64,000 nucleotides of DNA, taken from NCBI GenBank assembly GCA_002423025.1, contig DIUN01000006.1, positions 6,903 through 70,902 on the forward strand, read 5' to 3'. The notes below the pieces were generated by a model. That model was not told the origin of the DNA and searched no databases. It was given only the letters and a program-made list of their open reading frames with translations. How positions within the stretch are numbered: the first letter of the stretch is position 1; every line of letters begins with the position of its first letter. This stretch comes from Sphingomonadales bacterium UBA6157 (GTDB taxonomy: Bacteria; Pseudomonadota; Alphaproteobacteria; Sphingomonadales; Sphingomonadaceae). Below are positions 8,980 to 51,479 of the stretch, piece after piece. The position numbers were made by a program, and so were the translations under genes.

Positions 8980-9173
8980 CCTAGCCCAGCAGGCGGCCGC
9001 CCCCTGCGAGGGGTTTCGCTCACCGGCACCTTCACGCCACGCCTTGCCAGCGCCTCGCGCAGCAGCACCTCGATCTCGGCGTTGAGGCTGCGCAGATCAG
9101 CAGCGGCGGCGCGGGCGAGAGCGTCGTGCAGCGCCGGATCGAGGCGCAGTGGGAAGGGCTTCTTTTGCGCCAC
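8976..9173 (-). CDS. Arc/MetJ-type ribbon-helix-helix DNA-binding protein (65 aa from an internal GTG)
   Basis: KKPFPLRLDPALHDALARAAAADLRSLNAEIEVLLREAL is a typical RHH fold signature. The GTG at 9173 lies 2 nt after the SPFH stop, whereas the longer ORF 8976..9266 would overlap the SPFH gene. Confidence 0.6.
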   Translation of the reverse strand: MAQKKPFPLRLDPALHDALARAAAADLRSLNAEIEVLLREALARRGVKVPVSETPRRGRPPAGLG

Positions 9174-9177
9174 GGGC

Positions 9178-10071
9178 CTATTGGTAGAGCCCGCCAGCGT
9201 TGACCACTGGCTGGGTTTCGCGCTCGCCGCACAGCACAACAAGCAGGTTAGACACCATGGCGGCACGGCGCTCGTCGTCCAGATGCACCACCTTGCGTTC
9301 GCTCAGCATGTTGAGCGCCATTTCCACCATGCCGACAGCGCCGGTAACAAGCGTTTCCCGCGCCGCCACCACGGCGGCGGCCTGCTGGCGACGCAGCATG
9401 GCGCCAGCGATTTCGGGCGCATAGGCGAGGTGCGTGAAGCCGCATTCGTCCACGGTGATGCCGGCGACGGCGAGCCGGGCAATCAACTCGGTGCGGAGTT
9501 CGGCACTCACCCGCTCATGATCGCCGCGCAGGGTAACTTCCTTGTGCTCGAAATCATCATAGGGGTAGCGCGCGCCGATGGTGCGGACTGCAGCCTCGAT
9601 CTGGGCGGTGACGAAGCTGCCATAATCATCAACATCGAACAGCGCTTGTGCCGAATCGGTGACGCGCCACACCACTTGCGCCGCCATCTCGATCGGGTTG
9701 CCACGCAGGTCGTTCACCTTGATCATCTGCGAGATGAGGTTGTGGGAGCGTAGGCTGATCTTCTGCTTGGCCATCCAGGGCCAGGTCCAGCGCAGGCCAG
9801 GGGTGCGGTCCGTACCGCGATAATCCCCGAACAGCGTGATGGCGGCGCCCTCATTGGGCTGCACCTTGTAGAATCCGGCAGCGAGAAGCAGCGAGACCAG
9901 CATGGCACCCGAGGCGATGAGCGCCATCGTGCCGCCGCCCTCGGGGATGCTCAGCGCAGAGACGATGCCGAACAGCACCGTGACAGCGAACAGTGTGAGC
10001 ACGACAAAGCCCGAACTTCCAGCGCCGGAAATCTCGCGGCTGGTGCGAACCGGCAATGCTTCTGCGGTCAT
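9178..10071 (-). CDS. SPFH/Band 7 domain membrane protein
   Basis: Two N-terminal TM helices followed by an SPFH core ([20 protein letters not shown] ... [16 protein letters not shown] ... [15 protein letters not shown]). Confidence 0.9.
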
Positions 10072-10092
10072 GGCTTTGGCTCCCTAAAAACA

Positions 10093-10112
10093 TGATATCA
10101 AAATTATATCAG
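10093..10112 (-). promoter_or_regulatory. Extended -10 promoter (TGATATAAT on the minus strand) overlapped by inverted repeat TGATAT-N7-ATATCA, upstream of the SPFH gene
   Basis: Minus strand reads CTGATATAATTTTGATATCA, 22-41 nt upstream of the SPFH ATG, with AGGGAG as the RBS. The 6-bp arms lie at 10093-10098 and 10106-10111. Confidence 0.4.
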
Positions 10113-10136
10113 TTTCCAGGCTGGCGCAAGCCGTAC

Positions 10137-10358
10137 TCAGTCTTCGGGGTCAGCGCCACCGCCGGGGCTGAACGGGCCGCCGTTGCCGGTGTCGTCGCCA
10201 AAATCGCCCCGGATCCGGCTGGAGAAGGCGTGCGGCGGCGCATCGGTATCGCTGGGGATAGGCGGCTGGCCTGGGTCCCCCTCGCGCGGCTGGCGCGGGG
10301 CACTGAACATGATGAGTGCGATGACGCCGATGGTCAGCAGGACAATGGCGATGACCAT
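10137..10358 (-). CDS. Small membrane protein: N-terminal TM and a Pro/Asp/Gly-rich tail
   Basis: MVIAIVLLTIGVIALIMF helix. High third-position GC, consistent with coding. No family recognised. Confidence 0.5.
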   Translation of the reverse strand: MVIAIVLLTIGVIALIMFSAPRQPREGDPGQPPIPSDTDAPPHAFSSRIRGDFGDDTGNGGPFSPGGGADPED

Positions 10359-10400
10359 GGCTTGGTTCTTTGTTTGCGAGGAAAGTGCGGTGCGTGACGA

Positions 10401-10541
10401 TCAGGGTTTGGCGTCAGGGTCCGGCTTGTCAGGGTTGCTCGGGCGGCGCTTGAAAATGTTGGCCGGGTCCCTTGCCATGAGCCAGAGCACCCAGCCGATA
10501 AAGGCGATGTTGAGGGCAACGATGAGGAGGATCGATGTCAT
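10401..10541 (-). CDS. Small membrane protein, 46 aa (below the ORF-track cut-off)
   Basis: Hand translation gives MTSILLIVALNIAFIGWVLWLMARDPANIFKRRPSNPDKPDPDAKP. High GC3. Same architecture as the neighbouring 73-aa ORF. Confidence 0.4.
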   Translation of the reverse strand: MTSILLIVALNIAFIGWVLWLMARDPANIFKRRPSNPDKPDPDAKP

Positions 10542-44706: not shown

Positions 44707-46866
44707 TTGCATATGCTGCTGACTGACGTCGGCCTGTTCAGCCATGTGCTGGCATTGTTTGGCTTCGCTGCGTTGGCGGCGACTGTGCTGTGGAAGGCCG
44801 GTACACGTGGTACTGGCCTATGGCTGGCGGGCGCAGCCTTTGCCACCGCGGCTTGGGCTCTGGTGTTTGTCATGACAACGCAAGACGCGCTGGCTTGGCA
44901 AGGTTGGCTTTCACCGTCGGAAACGCTGCGGACTTCGGCTTGGCTGGCCTTTCTTATCGCCGTGCTGCGCCCAGCCTGGCAGATGGCGAAGCAGGTGCGC
45001 GCGGCTTTCGTCATCGCTTCCGCGCTCGGCTCTGTGGCGGCGCTCCTTCTCCTGCTCGATACCGGCAACATTGGCGCTGCGGTGCTGATGGGGGACAGGT
45101 CGCTTGCCGGCCAGCTCTTTCTTATCCTGCGGCTGGCAATGTCGGTCAGTGGTCTCGTGCTGGTGCACAATCTTTATGTGAACAGCCAGAGTGACACACG
45201 TGGGGGCGTGCGCCTGCTGACCATTGGGCTGGGCGGACTGTTTCTTTATGACCTGAACTTCTACACCTTGGCCTATCTGCTTCCGCCCGCATCGGCGGAC
45301 CTGTTCAATATTCGCGGCGCCGTGGACACCATCACTGTCCCGCTGTTGCTGCTCTCGGCGCGTGAGGCCTGGGCGGCGCGATTCTATGTTTCACGCCAGG
45401 TAGTGTTTCACACGCTGTCCTTCTCGATGATTGGTTTCTACCTCATCGCCATGGCGTTGCTTGCCTATGGCTTGCGGCTGCTCGGCGGAAATTGGGGGCT
45501 GCTGCTTCAGGTCAGTTTTCTGTTCGGCACCGTTATCCTTGGCATGGTCGTGCTCGTTTCGGAGCGGTTTCGCGCGGCGCTGCGTGTGCAGATTGCCAAG
45601 AACTTCTTTCGATACAAATATGATTATCGGAAGGAGTGGTTGCGCTTCATCGCCACAGTCTCGCAGACCGGCGATGGCGCGGCGGCGCTGCATGAGCGGG
45701 TCATACAGGCGGTTGCCGCGGTTATGGATTCGCCCGGCGGGGTGCTGATGGTGCCAGATGATGGCGCGCTGCACCCGGTAGCCGATTGGCAGACGCGGCG
45801 ACTGGGGCTTCCGGCCGAACCAATCAGTGGGGATTTTGGCCGATTAATCACACGGCAGTTCATTATCGACTTTGATGATTGGCGCGCTGGCGGATCGGAC
45901 TATGTGGGCCTTTCCTGCCCGGATTGGGCCATCGGCAATCGCCGTATCTGGCTGGCAGTGCCACTTGTCCATCTGGACAGCCTTGCTGGTGTGCTGATCC
46001 TCAAGCGGACTTTGGCACCTCGGCCCCTCAACTGGGAGGATTTTGACCTGCTGCGCACGCTCGGCAGACAGGCGGGCAGTTATATTGCGGAAAGTTCCAA
46101 GCAAGAGGCGCTCGACGAAGCCAGCAAGTTCGATGAGTTTAACCGACGCTTCGCCTTCATCATGCACGATATCAAGAACCTCGTGAGCCAACTCAGCCTT
46201 GTGGCGCGCAATGCCGAACGCCACGCGGATAATCCCGAATTTCGGGCCGACATGGTGGCGACGCTGCAGAGCTCAGTTGCCAAGATGAATGACTTACTGG
46301 CCCGGCTCTCGCAGGCGCCGAGTAGCCGCGGCGAGGGTGGTCGGGCGCCGGTGGACGTGGCGTCGCTGCTTGCGCAGGTGGTGGCGATGAAGCAGCGCGC
46401 ACATTCTGCCCTGACGCTGGCTCTTCCAGAGGGGCCGGTGCAGGCGGGCCCGGAGTTGACAGGTGCGCTGGAGGCGCCAGAAGGGCTTTCTTCTCCGCTA
46501 CTTGTGTCCGGAGATGCGGGACGGATTGAGCAATTGTTTCTGCACCTTGTCCAGAATGCGGTGGATGCCTCGCTGCCCGGCGCCCCGATCAGCGTCTCGG
46601 CAACACTGGCCGACGGCATGGTGCGAGTCGTCATAACGGATTCCGGCACTGGCATGACGGCGCGCTTCATCCGACAGGAACTATTTCAACCGTTCCGCTC
46701 CACCAAACCTGATGGCTTTGGCATCGGCGCTTACGAGGCGCGCGAGATCGCTCGGGCCCACGGCGGCGCATTGGAAGTTCACAGCCGCGAGGGTGAGGGC
46801 AGCGTGTTTACCGTAGTACTGCCGCTGATGTCCGCCTCCGCCCGATTCCAGGCGGAAGCCCTGTGA
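44707..46866 (+). CDS. prsK: PEP-CTERM system histidine kinase PrsK (XrtA-associated type)
   Basis: ~300-aa polytopic N-terminus, a GAF-like middle, H-box FAFIMHDIKNLVSQL, and N/G boxes (LVQNAVDA, DSGTGM, GFGIGAYE). Paired with a PrsR-type regulator. Confidence 0.75.
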   Translation: MHMLLTDVGLFSHVLALFGFAALAATVLWKAGTRGTGLWLAGAAFATAAWALVFVMTTQDALAWQGWLSPSETLRTSAWLAFLIAVLRPAWQMAKQVRAAFVIASALGSVAALLLLLDTGNIGAAVLMGDRSLAGQLFLILRLAMSVSGLVLVHNLYVNSQSDTRGGVRLLTIGLGGLFLYDLNFYTLAYLLPPASADLFNIRGAVDTITVPLLLLSAREAWAARFYVSRQVVFHTLSFSMIGFYLIAMALLAYGLRLLGGNWGLLLQVSFLFGTVILGMVVLVSERFRAALRVQIAKNFFRYKYDYRKEWLRFIATVSQTGDGAAALHERVIQAVAAVMDSPGGVLMVPDDGALHPVADWQTRRLGLPAEPISGDFGRLITRQFIIDFDDWRAGGSDYVGLSCPDWAIGNRRIWLAVPLVHLDSLAGVLILKRTLAPRPLNWEDFDLLRTLGRQAGSYIAESSKQEALDEASKFDEFNRRFAFIMHDIKNLVSQLSLVARNAERHADNPEFRADMVATLQSSVAKMNDLLARLSQAPSSRGEGGRAPVDVASLLAQVVAMKQRAHSALTLALPEGPVQAGPELTGALEAPEGLSSPLLVSGDAGRIEQLFLHLVQNAVDASLPGAPISVSATLADGMVRVVITDSGTGMTARFIRQELFQPFRSTKPDGFGIGAYEAREIARAHGGALEVHSREGEGSVFTVVLPLMSASARFQAEAL

Positions 46867-48227
46867 GCGAGCTGCGGCGCAAGCTCCTGGTGGTGGAGGA
46901 TGATGAGGGGCTGCAGCGCCAGTTGCGCTGGTCCTATGAAGATTATGACGTGATCATCGCCGGCAGTCGCGATGCAGCGATGGCTGCGTTGCGCCAGCAT
47001 GAGCCGGCAGTTGTGACTCTGGATTTGGGGCTGCCGCCTGATCCTGATGGTGTTTCGGAAGGCTTTGCCACGCTGGATGCAATCCTGGTCGAGCGGCCGC
47101 AGACCAAGGTCATCGTGGCCTCCGGCCACGGCGCTCGGCAGAGCGCGCGGGATGCGATCGCCAATGGCGCTTTCGATTTTTACCAGAAACCGGTTGATAT
47201 CGACGCTCTTGGCTTCATCGTGCGCCGGGCGTTCCATGTGGCAGACCTCGAGGCCGAAAACCGCCGACTGGCCGATACGGCCGCTGCCGCCACGCGTGAT
47301 GTGCTCGGCGGCATCGTTACGGGTGCGCCCGAAATGCTGAAAGTGGCCAGGATGATCGAGCGGGTCGCCTCTGCTCAGGTGTCGGTAATGCTGCTGGGTG
47401 CCAGCGGCACCGGCAAGGAATTGCTGGCACGCGGGTTGCACAACGCATCGCTGCGGGCTGCTAAGCCGTTCATCGCCATCAATTGCGCCGCTATTCCGGA
47501 GAACCTGCTCGAGTCCGAACTGTTCGGCTATGAAAAGGGCGCCTTCACTGGCGCTGTCAAAACCCAGCCAGGCAAAATCGAGATGGCTGAGACCGGCACG
47601 CTGTTTCTGGACGAAGTTGGAGATATTCCGCTGCCACTGCAGGTCAAGCTACTGCGTTTCCTGCAAGAACGGGTAATTGAGCGAATTGGTGGCCGCCGGC
47701 CGATTCCAGTCGATGTGCGCATTGTTTGCGCCACTCACCAAAATCTTGAAGCGATGATCGCGGAAGGGCGCTTCCGCGAAGATCTCTACTACCGGTTAGC
47801 CGAGATTGTGGTGAGGATTCCCTCGCTTGCCGAGCGACTGGGCGATGCGTCGCTGCTGGCGCATCATTTCCTGATGCGCTTTTCGAGGGAGCATGGGCGT
47901 AATTTCAAGGGGTTCACGCCTGATGCCATCGCTGCAATCAGCGATTGGCATTGGCCAGGCAACGTCCGCGAGCTGGAGAACCGCATGAAACGGGCGGTCA
48001 TCATGTCCGAGGCCTCGCGGCTCTGTGCTGCCGATCTCGATCTTGGTGCTGCCGCCGATGCGCCGGCGCTTACGCTCAAGGCCGCGCGGGATGCTGCGGA
48101 CCAACTGGTTATCCGCAAGGTGCTGGCGCGGTGCGACAACAATCTCTCATCCGCCGCCAAATTGCTCGGCATCAGCCGGCCGACTCTTTACGATCTGATG
48201 CGCCAGCACGGGCTCGATGCGAGCTGA
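46863..48227 (+). CDS. prsR: PEP-CTERM-box response regulator PrsR (sigma-54-dependent activator)
   Basis: Receiver [17 protein letters not shown] ... [19 protein letters not shown]+ [29 protein letters not shown]-terminal HTH ([16 protein letters not shown]). Confidence 0.85.
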
Positions 48228-48301: not shown

Positions 48302-48378
48302 CGGAGCGTGGCGCAGCCTGGTAGCGCATTAGACTGGGGGTCTAAGGGTCGCAGGTTCGAATCCTGTCGCTCCGACCA
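48302..48378 (+). tRNA. tRNA-Pro (anticodon GGG)
   Basis: Hand-folded cloverleaf. Acceptor CGGAGCG/CGCTCCG, D arm GCGC-AGCCTGGTA-GCGC, anticodon arm TTAGA-CTGGGGG-TCTAA, T arm GCAGG-TTCGAAT-CCTGT, discriminator A and encoded CCA. Confidence 0.9.
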
Positions 48379-48457
48379 GCCCTCACTGCATATATTGCTA
48401 ATCATGCAATAAGCTGGCCATGCCGGGTGAGGTATCGTGACTATTTGGCATCTAATA

Positions 48458-48484
48458 TTGACAGAATGAACCAAATAGGATAAT
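48458..48484 (+). promoter_or_regulatory. Possible promoter of the lysis cassette (TTGACA-N15-GATAAT)
   Basis: Perfect -35 and a 5/6 -10 but a short spacer. Followed by RBS AAGGAA 7 nt before the ATG at 48514. Confidence 0.3.
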
Positions 48485-48513
48485 TAGGTTGCTCCCCAAC
48501 AAGGAATGCGACC

Positions 48514-49068
48514 ATGGCCGCTCCCGATGACATAGTGCAGCCGCTGCTTGCGGCGCTTTTGCTGAAGGAGGGTGGCTTTGCCGACCATCCGCATGATCGC
48601 GGAGGCGCCACCAATTTCGGCATCACCGAGGCGGTTGCGCGGAGTGCCGGTTGGCTTGGATCCATGCGCGATTTGCCGCGTGATTTTGCTCTGGCCATCT
48701 ACAAGCGCCGCTTCTGGACGCTGCCGCGATTCCATGATGTCGCCGGCATTGTGCCGGCAGTGGCCGCAGAATTGTTCGATACCGGTGTCAACATGGGGCC
48801 GGCGGTCGCCACGGGCTTTCTTCAGCGCAGCCTCAATGTGCTCAACCGTCAGGGGCGAGACTGGCCGGATGTGGTGCTTGACCGGGCAGTCGGCCCGGCC
48901 ACCCTCGGTGCGCTGCGTGGCCTAAGGCGGGTGCGTGGACCGGCTGGCGAGGTAGTGCTGCTGACTGCCCTCAATGCCTTGCAGGGCACCCGCTATATTG
49001 AATTGGCCGAGGGCAGATCGGCGAACGAAAGCTTCCTCAATGGCTGGCTTTCGAGCCGCGTCGCATGA
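48514..49068 (+). CDS. Glycoside hydrolase family 108-like endolysin with a PG_binding_3-like C-terminus
   Basis: LLKEGGFADHPHDRGGATNFGIT (catalytic Glu region) and a C-terminal peptidoglycan-binding-like half (LDRAVGPATLGAL). Confidence 0.8.
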   Translation: MAAPDDIVQPLLAALLLKEGGFADHPHDRGGATNFGITEAVARSAGWLGSMRDLPRDFALAIYKRRFWTLPRFHDVAGIVPAVAAELFDTGVNMGPAVATGFLQRSLNVLNRQGRDWPDVVLDRAVGPATLGALRGLRRVRGPAGEVVLLTALNALQGTRYIELAEGRSANESFLNGWLSSRVA

Positions 49069-49376
49069 AGCTAAATATTGATCCCAACTGGCGCCGAGCA
49101 GTGCTGGCGCTGCTTTTTGGCGGCTCGGGAATCTCACTGTCGCTTATGGCGCTCTGGTTGGCCTGGAATGTGCTTCACGGCCCTTGGCCGGAAGCTCTGG
49201 CCGGGCAGAGGCTGAGGCTCATTGGCGGCGCACTTTACGCAACGATGGCGTTGCTAGGTCTGGTGCTGACAGGGCTGGCGATGACGGTAGCGCTACGCCA
49301 GGTGTCCGCCCGCTTCATGGGGGCTGATTTCTCGGCTTCAGGCAATGGCAACGACGGGCAGGGGCCGGGAACATGA
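49065..49376 (+). CDS. Holin-like small membrane protein (two TM helices)
   Basis: 103 aa with helices VLALLFGGSGISLSLMALWLAWNVL and LIGGALYATMALLGLVLTGLAMTVAL. ATGA overlaps with both the endolysin and spanin genes. The call is positional. Confidence 0.5.
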   Translation: MKLNIDPNWRRAVLALLFGGSGISLSLMALWLAWNVLHGPWPEALAGQRLRLIGGALYATMALLGLVLTGLAMTVALRQVSARFMGADFSASGNGNDGQGPGT

Positions 49377-49918
49377 TGGCGTTGGCGGGATGGCGCGGGC
49401 TGTTGGCGATGGTGCCGCGCACTGCCTGGCTGGTGCTGGGCGGCCTCGCGGCTCTGTTGCTGTTGGCACGCTGGCACGAGGGGCAGGTCGCGAAGGCCGA
49501 ACTGGTCGGGGCATCAGCACAGGCAGAACGGGACAGGACCGCCTTTACTCAGGCCTCCGAAGCAGCAGCAGCAGCTCAGCGCGAACTGGCGGTAGAGCTG
49601 GCGGTGCGGCAGCAGAAAATCTCGAAAGGAACGAATGATGCGCTTGCGGTTCGCCATGCCGAGCTTGCTCGTCGTTACGATGCTCTGCGGTTGCGCTGGG
49701 CGGATGCCCGCACCGGTGCCGGTGATTCCAGCAAGGGTGGAGCAAATGCCCTTTCCAGCGCCTCCGCCGGGACTGTTGACGCCGCTTGTGCGGCCCGCGG
49801 GTGGGTATCTCTCGACACTGCCGCAGCCGCTGCAGAAGCGGCCGACACAGCCATAGCCAAGGACGATGCCTGGATTGCCTGGGCGAAAGCGCAAGCGGCG
49901 GCCTGGCCGAAAGGCTAG
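49373..49918 (+). CDS. Rz-like inner-membrane spanin (i-spanin)
   Basis: N-terminal TM anchor (AWLVLGGLAALLLLA) followed by an Ala/Glu/Arg-rich predicted coiled coil. Contains a nested lipoprotein ORF in the +1 frame. Confidence 0.6.
   Translation: MMALAGWRGLLAMVPRTAWLVLGGLAALLLLARWHEGQVAKAELVGASAQAERDRTAFTQASEAAAAAQRELAVELAVRQQKISKGTNDALAVRHAELARRYDALRLRWADARTGAGDSSKGGANALSSASAGTVDAACAARGWVSLDTAAAAAEAADTAIAKDDAWIAWAKAQAAAWPKG
49635..49856 (+). CDS. Rz1-like outer-membrane lipoprotein spanin (o-spanin), fully embedded in the +1 frame of 49373..49918
   Basis: MMRLRFAMPSLLVVTMLCGC lipobox. The short mature part is very Pro-rich (PAPVPVIPARVEQMPFPAPPPGLLTPLVRP). RBS AAGGA lies 4-7 nt upstream. 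Confidence 0.6.
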   Translation: MMRLRFAMPSLLVVTMLCGCAGRMPAPVPVIPARVEQMPFPAPPPGLLTPLVRPAGGYLSTLPQPLQKRPTQP

Positions 49919-50439
49919 ACCGCGAGCGACGCCTTGTGCAGCTTGGCTGTCTCCACATAGCTTGCAGCGCCCCGGCGGTTCTGGGCTATCTCTGGTTCGC
50001 TTAGCAGGCGCAGAAGCCTGGCGGGGCGGCCAGCCCAGAGCTCGGCACGGCGGATGCGTTTGCCCGGCGTCAGCATGGCGCCGGCGGCGAGCATGCCGTC
50101 ACTTTCCACCACGCAGCCATCCATGACGATGGCGCCTAAGCCGATGAAGCTGTGATTCTCCAATACGCATCCGTGAATCATGGCAAGGTGCCCTATCAAC
50201 ACATCGTCACCGATGCTCGTTGCGTAGCGATTGGTCGTGACATGGACGACGCTGCCATCCTGGATGTTCGTTCGCGAGCCCACTGTGATGCGTTCGACAT
50301 CGCCGCGAAGAACGCAATTGTACCAGATCGAACTGTCTTCGCCGATCGTCACATCCCCAATAATTCTGGCACCCGGCGCAACGAAGGCGGACGGCGCGAT
50401 GAATGGCCAGCAATCCCCGAAGCGCAGGATGCTGCTCAC
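49915..50439 (-). CDS. Gamma-carbonic-anhydrase-like / hexapeptide-repeat protein
   Basis: GTG start at 50439 overlapping the argC stop (GTGA). Left-handed beta-helix repeats (IGDVTIGEDSSIWYNCVLRGD, IGDDVLIGHLAMIHG). Confidence 0.85.
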   Translation of the reverse strand: MSSILRFGDCWPFIAPSAFVAPGARIIGDVTIGEDSSIWYNCVLRGDVERITVGSRTNIQDGSVVHVTTNRYATSIGDDVLIGHLAMIHGCVLENHSFIGLGAIVMDGCVVESDGMLAAGAMLTPGKRIRRAELWAGRPARLLRLLSEPEIAQNRRGAASYVETAKLHKASLAV

Positions 50440-51479
50440 GGAAACAGCGGCGCTGCTTCCAGCCCCATGGTTTCGGGCAGGCCAAACATCAGGTTCATGT
50501 TCTGGATGGCCTGGCCCGAGGAGCCCTTCACCAGATTGTCGATGGCGGCGATGATGATGGCGCGGCCGGGCACGCGATCTGCAAAGACGTTGACGACCGT
50601 ATGGTTGGAGCCGCGCACCATGCGCGTCGCCGGCGCCAAACCTTCCGGCAAGAGGTGTACAAACGGCTCTGCTGCATAGCGACCGGCAAGCGTGGCGCGG
50701 AGGTCGGCAATGCCAGTGCCGGGCGCCATTTCGGCTATGCAGGTAACAAGCTCGCCGCGGTTCATCGGCACGAGGTGCGGCGTGAAGCTCACCACAACCG
50801 GGCTGCCTGAGGCAAGACTCAGTTGCTGGTCGATCTCTGGCATGTGGCGGTGATGCCCGATGCCATAGGGGTGCACGGCCTCGGCGACTTCTGGGAAGAG
50901 ATTGCCCTCCTTGAGGCTGCGGCCGGCGCCAGAAACGCCTGAGAGCGCGTTGATGGTGATGCGCTCGGGCGTGATGACGCCGGCTCCGAGCAGCGGCTGC
51001 AACGCCAGCAATACTGCCGTGGGGTAGCAGCCGGGGCAAGCAACCAGGCGCGCGGCGGGCAGGCTCGCTCTTGCGTATTCGCTCAGCCCATAAACTGCCT
51101 CTGGCAGCAGCGCCGGCGCCGGGTGCGCGCCGCCATACCAGTGGGCATAGACGTCTGCGTCCTTAAGCCGAAAATCAGCCGAGAGATCGATGATGCGCGG
51201 GCCAGAGAGCGTGCCGAGCAGGCTGGCCGAGGCCGCGTGCGGCAAGCAGCCGAACACTGCGTCGATGCTGGAAAAATCGATGCTCTCGCTAGGGACGAGG
51301 CGCGGCAGGCTGGGATAAGGCGCGAAGTGCGGCCAGATCTCGGCCATGGTTTGCCCGGCCTTGGAATTGGCCGAGAGAGCGGCGACCTCGATGCGTGGGT
51401 GGGTGAGCGCGAGGCGCACAAGATCGGCACCGGTGTAGCCGGAGGCACCGAGGACGGCGATGCGAATGGGCGTTGTCAT
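50436..51479 (-). CDS. argC: N-acetyl-gamma-glutamyl-phosphate reductase
   Basis: IAVLGASGYTGADLVRL Rossmann motif and active-site region VACPGCYPTA. Confidence 0.95.
   Translation of the reverse strand: MTTPIRIAVLGASGYTGADLVRLALTHPRIEVAALSANSKAGQTMAEIWPHFAPYPSLPRLVPSESIDFSSIDAVFGCLPHAASASLLGTLSGPRIIDLSADFRLKDADVYAHWYGGAHPAPALLPEAVYGLSEYARASLPAARLVACPGCYPTAVLLALQPLLGAGVITPERITINALSGVSGAGRSLKEGNLFPEVAEAVHPYGIGHHRHMPEIDQQLSLASGSPVVVSFTPHLVPMNRGELVTCIAEMAPGTGIADLRATLAGRYAAEPFVHLLPEGLAPATRMVRGSNHTVVNVFADRVPGRAIIIAAIDNLVKGSSGQAIQNMNLMFGLPETMGLEAAPLFP

Follow-up and report, generated by a model that had tools for sequence, protein, structure and literature searches.

Phage-type lysis cassettes that belong to a bacterial host are known from a handful of systems: the gene transfer agent of Rhodobacter capsulatus (RcGTA), the pyocins and type 10 secretion. 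At the RcGTA locus, the closest analogue of the one described here, the genes for the endolysin (rcc00555) and the holin (rcc00556) lie away from the structural genes, are syntenic and are vertically inherited (PMC5026251). Gene transfer agents (GTAs) of Caulobacter are released by LypABC lysis, without a holin or an endolysin. The lysis route of Sphingomonadales GTAs is open, and XseA has been proposed for it as a speculation (PMC9765227). Here we analyze a 64,000-nucleotide stretch of DNA from Sphingomonadales bacterium UBA6157 (the window; all coordinates are window positions unless a relative is named). At 48514-49918 on the forward strand it carries four tightly packed genes, ORF1 to ORF4, for an endolysin, a putative holin and an embedded pair of spanins. 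This is probably a host-owned, vertically inherited phage lysis cassette, captured from a temperate phage and kept functional beside a gamma-carbonic-anhydrase-like (gamma-CA) gene and argC. A first-pass annotation had called it a chromosomally fixed, domesticated module and not a prophage. That view is now well supported by synteny, co-divergence, dN/dS, the trees, a host-like GC content at third codon positions (GC3) and a private promoter and operator, and all of the coordinates and features given in that annotation hold on re-analysis.

The cassette resembles the RcGTA locus in being a phage-type lysis operon in an alphaproteobacterial chromosome, flanked by core genes and away from structural genes. 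Its endolysin-holin operon is likewise syntenic and vertically inherited, and no structural cluster is seen in about 74 kb of contig. This figure refers to the Pfam annotation of 88-162 kb of the source contig (ENA ERZ27315062, 224 kb), which takes in the window minus about 3 kb (35.5-38.5 kb) and 9 kb past its right edge. The two loci differ in content, in site and in sequence. The cassette has four genes, including an embedded two-component spanin, and lies at tRNA-Pro/gamma-CA/argC, whereas the RcGTA genes lie at cycJ/heme lyase. ORF1 is far below the cut-off of the NF040573 model, though this model may not represent rcc00555, and ORF2 falls outside the named families. With lambda SRRzRz1 the cassette shares the three-step parts list, an outer-membrane spanin (o-spanin) in the +1 frame inside the gene of the inner-membrane spanin (i-spanin), and tight packing. 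However, its endolysin comes first and is a GH108 muramidase, whereas that of lambda is a transglycosylase, and nothing in the cassette resembles S, Rz or Rz1 in sequence. It also stands outside a phage, with its own, presumably operator-controlled promoter, whereas lambda relies on late-gene antitermination. TtsA and Sen1395 (PDB codes 6V40 and 6V3Z) share a two-domain fold family with the full length of ORF1, together with a Glu/Asp/Thr triad, and type 10 secretion systems are domesticated lysis cassettes as well. In contrast to these, the cassette has no linked cargo, and it differs from the typhoid-toxin islet in having a holin and spanins next to the muramidase. Pyocin and tailocin cassettes are host-regulated sets of holin, endolysin and spanin genes that release a phage-derived particle and are embedded in a tail-gene cluster, whereas no tail gene lies within the 74 kb here.

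One scan of the GTDB species representatives yielded 23 loci. With two metagenome loci, the set comes to about 25 species-level genomes from two genera, Polymorphobacter and Sandarakinorhabdus, both in Sphingosinicellaceae; the scan of metagenomes gave no more than 4 loci and added no further context. The order PrsK-PrsR-tRNA-Pro(GGG)-endolysin-holin-ORF3/ORF4-gamma-CA-argC is present in 16 of the 23 GTDB loci, and the two metagenome loci show a matching order. The tRNA-Pro(GGG) gene is upstream of the cassette in 16 GTDB loci and in L035, and not in L025, L016 and L022. The upstream side differs in the deep branch, where L025 has an opp-like transporter. Downstream, the gamma-CA/argC pair is found in every locus that is long enough to show it. 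In most of these relatives the tRNA-Pro-to-argC interval, which the first-pass annotation had singled out for comparison, holds the conserved cassette. That annotation had also read the convergent overlap of the ORF3 and gamma-CA stops as leaving no room for an att scar. The 4-bp overlap is real, but the missing room is specific to this lineage, since the gap between the two genes ranges from -4 bp to 3.8 kb in relatives and is filled with unrelated lineage-specific genes. Inserts of 0.5 to 3.9 kb occur at this place in L006, L008, L014, L020, L022 and L027, and their genes include a fatty-acid hydroxylase-like gene, a methyltransferase-like gene and genes for a TetR regulator, a luciferase-like monooxygenase and a kinase-like protein. 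In L016 the argC/gamma-CA block is inverted relative to the other loci.

As had been claimed for the window, there are no integrase, terminase, portal, capsid or tail genes in the annotated 74 kb. A second copy of the tRNA-Pro 3' end, as expected of an att repeat, was searched for in the window and not found. The marks of a prophage or a cryptic prophage, namely an integrase, a repressor, structural or packaging genes and flanking att repeats, are missing from the stretches covered. The cassette has instead diverged together with the chromosome around it. Protein distances of the endolysin, the holin and ORF3 track those of argC, PrsR and the gamma-CA protein (r = 0.42-0.74, Mantel p ≤ 0.0025). 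Pairwise dN/dS (NG86) points to purifying selection on the cassette: the endolysin gene (0.22) and the holin gene (0.28) are like the gamma-CA gene (0.24), with argC at 0.19 and PrsR at 0.11. These values are rough because dS, at about 0.8-1.2, is near saturation. For ORF3 the value of 0.49 is inflated by the overlapping ORF4 frame. The cassette has been maintained for a very long time, to the point where synonymous sites are near saturation. Its GC3 (0.67-0.69) comes close to the 0.70-0.71 of PrsK/PrsR and hemB and lies below the 0.74-0.78 of the gamma-CA gene and argC. When the endolysin and ORF3 are placed in neighbour-joining trees, the chromosomal copies form a single clade, the subclades of which largely mirror the argC tree, and the two phage copies pair outside it.

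Prophages and phages of the same bacteria carry relatives of the cassette. The siphovirus-type prophage L028/L038 lies in a Polymorphobacter-like chromosome. Its genes run from the tail assembly chaperones through an HNH endonuclease, the tape measure, a distal tail protein and the tail fibre to the endolysin, DUF6527 and a small ORF, after which come the i/o-spanin and an Xre-M78 regulator. A different, podovirus-like phage, L029, has an endolysin, a homologue of the holin and spanins after its tail fibre gene. In the L037 prophage (9498-10534) an ORF3-type spanin follows a T4-type Phage_lysozyme (PF00959) and not a GH108 enzyme, which shows that phages of this clade exchange lysis genes as modules. 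ORF3 homologues thus occupy the lysis position in three different phages or prophages. Because parts of the cassette circulate in the clade's phages at the normal lysis position, a lytic function is supported, and the source is likely to have been a temperate phage. L028 was also considered as a GTA cluster and rejected, as its tail genes lack the Pfam domains of RcGTA type and belong to an ordinary siphovirus.

The first-pass call of ORF1 (48514-49068, forward strand, 184 aa) as a muramidase is borne out by family searches. Its N-terminal part matches Glyco_hydro_108 (PF05838; E = 1.7e-22, 80.2 bits against a cut-off of 21.2), and its C-terminal half, as anticipated, is PG_binding_3 (PF09374; E = 3e-15, 56.5 bits against a cut-off of 24.6). 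It also matches the PHROG endolysin family phrog_315 (E = 3e-39) and aligns over its full length with the nearest solved structures, Sen1395 (E = 3e-53) and TtsA (E = 2.6e-51). The catalytic triad of TtsA is Glu14/Asp19/Thr28 (PMC6996933). The aligned residues of ORF1 are E19, D24 and T33, which are kept in 20/20, 19/20 and 20/20 copies, and the catalytic Glu lies in the expected EGG[YF] motif. By sequence, then, ORF1 is predicted to be a GH108 N-acetylmuramidase with an intact triad, a close relative of TtsA and Sen1395. Homologues that are 50-54% identical occur in 480 isolated phage genomes, where they are annotated as endolysin, lysozyme or GH108. Neither a transmembrane (TM) segment nor a signal peptide is predicted, so ORF1 would need a holin to reach the wall. 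In L006 the 5' end of the endolysin gene (about 9050-9100) holds about five tandem 9-nt units (GCTACGCCT) that encode an (ATP)n-like N-terminal extension.

ORF2 (49065-49376, forward strand, 103 aa) is a two-helix, holin-like protein, as had been described, with TM domains (TMDs) at about 12-37 and 52-77. Its tail is polar and strongly conserved (ALRQVSARFMGADFSASG). It is therefore what a holin is expected to be, a small protein with at least two TMDs and a hydrophilic C-terminus, encoded beside an endolysin. The position between endolysin and spanin is conserved among the loci, and phage L029 has a 34%-identical homologue at the equivalent place. On the grounds of size, topology, conserved position and this phage counterpart, we regard ORF2 as a putative class II holin. 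A word-based search gave 121 ORF2 clusters, none of which bears the name holin; all belong to the same clade. An exhaustive profile search of 1.84 billion representatives gave only 89, nearly all of 90-150 aa, and the 79 remote relatives from this search had no Pfam, PHROG or NCBIfam match.

The last two genes share one stretch of DNA. ORF3 (49373-49918, forward strand, 181 aa) has the TM anchor and Rz-like character first ascribed to it: a single N-terminal TMD (16-32) and, in the predicted structure, the layout of Rz. In the AlphaFold2 model (mean pLDDT 84) a helix spans residues 16-115, followed by a disordered linker (121-131) and helices at 132-141 and 147-177. An i-spanin is recognised by a TMD near its N-terminus and by a periplasmic domain that is largely helical, in two stretches with a linker between them, and on the model ORF3 is probably an Rz-like one, with its TMD, helix of about 100 residues, linker and helical C-terminal domain. 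In sequence searches, the window's own protein has no match to known spanin families, though members of the ORF3 family have weak matches that fall, among annotated families, almost only on nine Rz-like spanin PHROGs (best E = 1.1e-4). PHROG matches of ORF4 have an E of about 0.4. Foldseek found nothing meaningful in BFVD for the ORF3 model, and ORF3 had no match in 50,697 isolated phage genomes. The family comprises 123 clusters, the named ones being from Polymorphobacter or Sandarakinorhabdus and every informative name being "hypothetical".

ORF4 (49635-49856, forward strand, 73 aa) lies inside ORF3, in the +1 frame, and its lipobox agrees with the lipoprotein reported there. It consists of a signal peptide, the lipobox L-C-G-C with Ala at +2, and a proline-rich mature part of about 53 aa, and so has the features of an o-spanin, a small outer-membrane lipoprotein with a signal peptidase II lipobox and no Asp at +2. 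The frame is open in all 24 loci compared, with a basic n-region, a hydrophobic core and the lipobox Cys followed by Ala-Gly. The lipobox reads [LI][CS][GA]C in 22 of them, and F-G-C and S-G-C are the variants in the other two. The mature part carries the motif QLPFPxPPxALxTPLARPxGGYLSTLPQPP. In the codon alignment, the third-position entropy of ORF3 is 1.46 upstream of the overlap, 0.65 over mature ORF4 and 0.88 downstream. The low value in the overlap indicates that two frames are under selection at once, and hence that the embedded o-spanin frame is itself selected. The sequences thus point to ORF3 and ORF4 as an embedded two-component spanin of Rz/Rz1 type, with disruption of the outer membrane as its predicted action. 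The Shine-Dalgarno sequence (AAGGA) and start codon of ORF4 sit in the nearly invariant ISKGT codons of ORF3 (49620-49640), so that one DNA stretch is under three constraints.

The 135-bp spacer between the tRNA gene and ORF1 (48379-48513) is indeed richer in AT, with a GC content of 0.444 against 0.641 window-wide. It contains a conserved promoter on the forward strand (48458-48486), with a -35 element TTGACA (48458-48463), a 17-nt spacer and a -10-like element TAATTA (48481-48486). The pattern TTGAC[AT]-N17-TAnnnn is conserved in 21 loci. In all 19 with an endolysin it stands just upstream of the start codon, and in L016 and L022, which have lost the endolysin, it stands directly before the holin. 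An imperfect dyad, TAnAACC-N5-GGnTAnTA (48466-48487, forward strand), spans the promoter spacer and the -10 element. Three parts of it never vary, namely AACC, GG and the A of the -10 element, and it scores on both strands. A weight matrix of this element was run over 393 kb (the window together with chromosomal and phage loci), and scores of at least 19 bits fell only at cassette promoters. A second copy was searched for in the window and not found. The placement over the spacer and -10 would fit a repressor, and we presume that the dyad is a repressor site. Readings as an ECF-type or a LexA (GAAC-N7-GAAC) operator were rejected by eye, as the required second element is not conserved. L016 (9585-9625) has an apparent second operator-like dyad, TAACC-GTATA-GGTT, over the -35 TTGACA, besides the one in the spacer.

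Signals for translation follow directly. An inverted repeat, GGTTGC...GCGACC (48487-48513, forward strand), encloses the Shine-Dalgarno sequence AAGGA (48501-48505) immediately before the start codon. Hairpins at or over the Shine-Dalgarno sequence of the first gene are found in most loci (the window and L005-L026), with arm sequences that differ per lineage. Such a hairpin may throttle translation of the whole coupled operon, though its 5' arm in the window directly adjoins the -10 element and may not be transcribed. Mean pairing of the Shine-Dalgarno sequence is 0.63 against 0.46 in shuffles, a difference that is only suggestive, with start codons mis-set in four loci. RNAalifold gave no consensus structure for the 5' untranslated regions, because the hairpins are not in register. 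The ATGA stop/start overlaps first seen at 49065-49068 and 49373-49376 are present, and overlaps of this kind (ATGA or TGATG) occur at both gene junctions in nearly all loci, which implies coupled translation. Terminator-like matches all lie inside genes.

We propose the following course of events. An ancestor of the Polymorphobacter/Sandarakinorhabdus lineage would have captured the cassette from a temperate phage. Its promoter would normally be shut by a dimeric DNA-binding protein at the dyad overlapping the spacer and the -10. Derepression, probably in a subpopulation of cells, would give one mRNA, from which endolysin, holin and i-spanin would be made by stop/start-coupled translation and the o-spanin from its embedded frame. 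The signal-less GH108 muramidase would build up in the cytoplasm and the two-TMD holin in the inner membrane, until the holin triggers and the muramidase reaches the wall. With the peptidoglycan mesh cut, the inner and outer membranes would be fused by the Rz/Rz1-type spanin complex, and the cell would burst. The data show what the genes are and how they are arranged, their conservation, selection and vertical descent, the conserved promoter and operator, and the phage relatives; repression, lysis and its purpose are inferred. The most plausible purpose would be the altruistic release of something that lacks an exit route of its own, and the RcGTA-like GTA of the clade is the leading candidate for this cargo. 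The roles listed in the first-pass annotation, release of GTAs, tailocins or vesicles, or autolysis, are speculation, and no link of the cassette to any client was found here. Release of GTAs by the cassette is plausible by analogy. It is unlikely, however, that the cassette is the Sphingomonadales GTA exit route in the full sense of an independently recruited lysis operon with spanins, a dedicated repressor and a sacrificial subpopulation.

Several observations speak against the account of a host-owned, functional lysis cassette. One is that three independent lineages (L016, L021 and L022) have no endolysin yet keep promoter, operator, holin and spanins. In L021 (6532-6675) there is an in-frame deletion of the endolysin between two LLR microhomologies, and a 47-aa stub is still coupled to the holin. 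In L016 (about 9590-9660) and in L022 (6079-6125), the isolate P. multimanifer DSM 102189, the endolysin is cleanly absent and promoter and operator are fused to the holin. Holin and spanins are intact in all three. Such losses are hard to square with selection for complete lysis unless a different muramidase stands in for the lost one; the alternative is that the holin is the main target of selection. In addition, ORF2 has no named family in Pfam, PHROGs or NCBIfam and so belongs to no described holin family, and the dN/dS values are rough, as said above. Also, a strict E. coli-type sigma-70 scan called no promoter, the -10 being non-canonical. The promoter call rests on conservation, because the scanner misses a -10 that lacks T at position 6. 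The link to GTAs meets objections of its own. The families of the holin and of the spanins occur in a single lineage, whereas GTA clusters are order-wide. ORF1 scores 44 bits against NF040573 (holin-associated N-acetylmuramidase), where the cut-off is 240 bits, though the model may not represent rcc00555. No GTA gene was seen near any locus or in the 74 kb of contig, and no canonical CtrA box (TTAA-N7-TTAA) is conserved upstream of the cassette.

These objections bear on a first alternative, a dedicated GTA release module, that is, a counterpart of rcc00555/556 that was independently recruited with spanins and is co-induced with the head-tail cluster in a subpopulation. We consider this possible but doubtful. 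RcGTA is a precedent with matching genomic logic, Caulobacter uses a different route, and that of Sphingomonadales is open. The congener Polymorphobacter sp. PAMC 29334 has a complete head-tail cluster, with 14 of the 14 surveyed GTA head-tail genes (PMC10883770 Table S3), and such clusters have no lysis genes; none of the carrier genera was found in the supplement of PMC7360931. The operator core, which overlaps the -10, agrees with the ungapped CtrA motif TTAACCAT in 6-7 of its 8 positions (motifs from PMC6180460), a likeness noted at 48466-48475 and at the equivalent place in relatives. However, the invariant positions of the core are AACC and GG and not the critical TTAA of CtrA, so the likeness is only a lead, and loss of the endolysin in three lineages does not fit such a module well. 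A system resembling type 10 secretion would use the holin, muramidase and spanins to export a specific cargo, non-lytically or through lysis of specialised cells. Serratia ChiWXYZ, Salmonella TtsA and the Yersinia entomophaga lysis cassette are models for this. Such systems derive from phage lysis cassettes and may include spanins (PMC10847048, PMC13284979), and the cassette, a holin and hydrolase of phage origin under presumed host control with no phage around them, matches this pattern. Its closest solved relatives are indeed TtsA and Sen1395, but Sen1395 is an ordinary homologue and hundreds of phage endolysins are equally close. Moreover, no candidate cargo gene such as a chitinase or toxin is linked in about 25 loci; the neighbours are PrsK/PrsR, the tRNA, gamma-CA and argC, and the downstream inserts are unrelated lineage-specific genes. 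We therefore hold this explanation to be quite improbable.

A role in suicide or defence is also improbable. In this case the host would keep a kill switch that fires on loss of the repressor, for abortive infection or for stress autolysis that releases extracellular DNA and nutrients for biofilm kin. The tightly placed operator and the coupled translation would suit a dangerous, normally silent operon, and a holin kept without an endolysin in three lineages would suit killing rather than wall digestion. On the other hand, PADLOC gave no match, there is no linked sensor or defence gene, and the lineages in question retain spanins, which are useless without wall degradation. The same losses of the endolysin, the adjoining tRNA gene and the homologous cassettes near the ends of prophages in the same hosts could be taken to mean that the cassette is what remains, inert and functionless today, of a prophage that decayed at tRNA-Pro. 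This explanation is contradicted by the selection data and is highly improbable. All four frames are intact across lineages with near-saturated synonymous sites, dN/dS is 0.22-0.28, and conservation extends to the embedded frame, the lipobox, the promoter and its operator, and the gene overlaps. Even the lineages that lost the endolysin preserved the expression signals or re-fused them to the holin. Thus, the host-owned, vertically inherited lysis cassette is the explanation that we prefer.

The cassette is a clean natural example of such host-owned machinery, a complete four-gene machine at one chromosomal site in a freshwater Sphingomonadales lineage, with prophage cousins available for comparison. 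It is a testable candidate for the exit of Sphingomonadales GTAs or of other cargo. Two unannotated families, the holin and the spanin pair, could be named, and the operator offers a bait for finding the regulator and the genes that it controls. What selection acts on is a small puzzle, given that the endolysin alone was lost repeatedly. If the cassette were the GTA exit route, there would be three solutions for GTA release in Alphaproteobacteria, the holin-endolysin pair of Rhodobacter, LypABC of Caulobacter and this cassette, and the endolysin-less lineages would mark a shift to a different wall-degrading partner. A demonstrated GTA link would raise the interest of the locus substantially.

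The remaining features of the window concern its neighbourhood. The tRNA-Pro(GGG) gene (48302-48378, forward strand; Rfam tRNA, 63 bits) is the only tRNA gene that ARAGORN finds in the window and is the upstream landmark of the cassette in most relatives; the Rfam scan found nothing but this tRNA. On the reverse strand lie the constant downstream anchors, the gamma-CA gene (49915-50439) and argC (50436-51479), both assigned by NCBIfam. By Pfam, the genes in the 74 kb are housekeeping only, for example ATP synthase, ParC, RecO, Era, RNase III, PGI, L13/S9 and DXS, and also Fur, PrsK/PrsR, argC, hemB, SHMT, NrdR, a sigma factor and DnaX. PrsK (TIGR02916, E = 1e-169) and PrsR (TIGR02915, E = 5.5e-198), a two-component pair of PEP-CTERM/exosortase systems, are encoded at 44713-48227, directly upstream of the cassette on the same strand with only the tRNA between. 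This adjacency is kept in most relatives, though not in all, and is thus probably not functional. A gene for a YkuD-type L,D-transpeptidase is found on the same contig, about 5 kb past the right edge of the window (L032, 16667-17692). It is mentioned only because TtsA-like muramidases can be specific for LD-crosslinked peptidoglycan.

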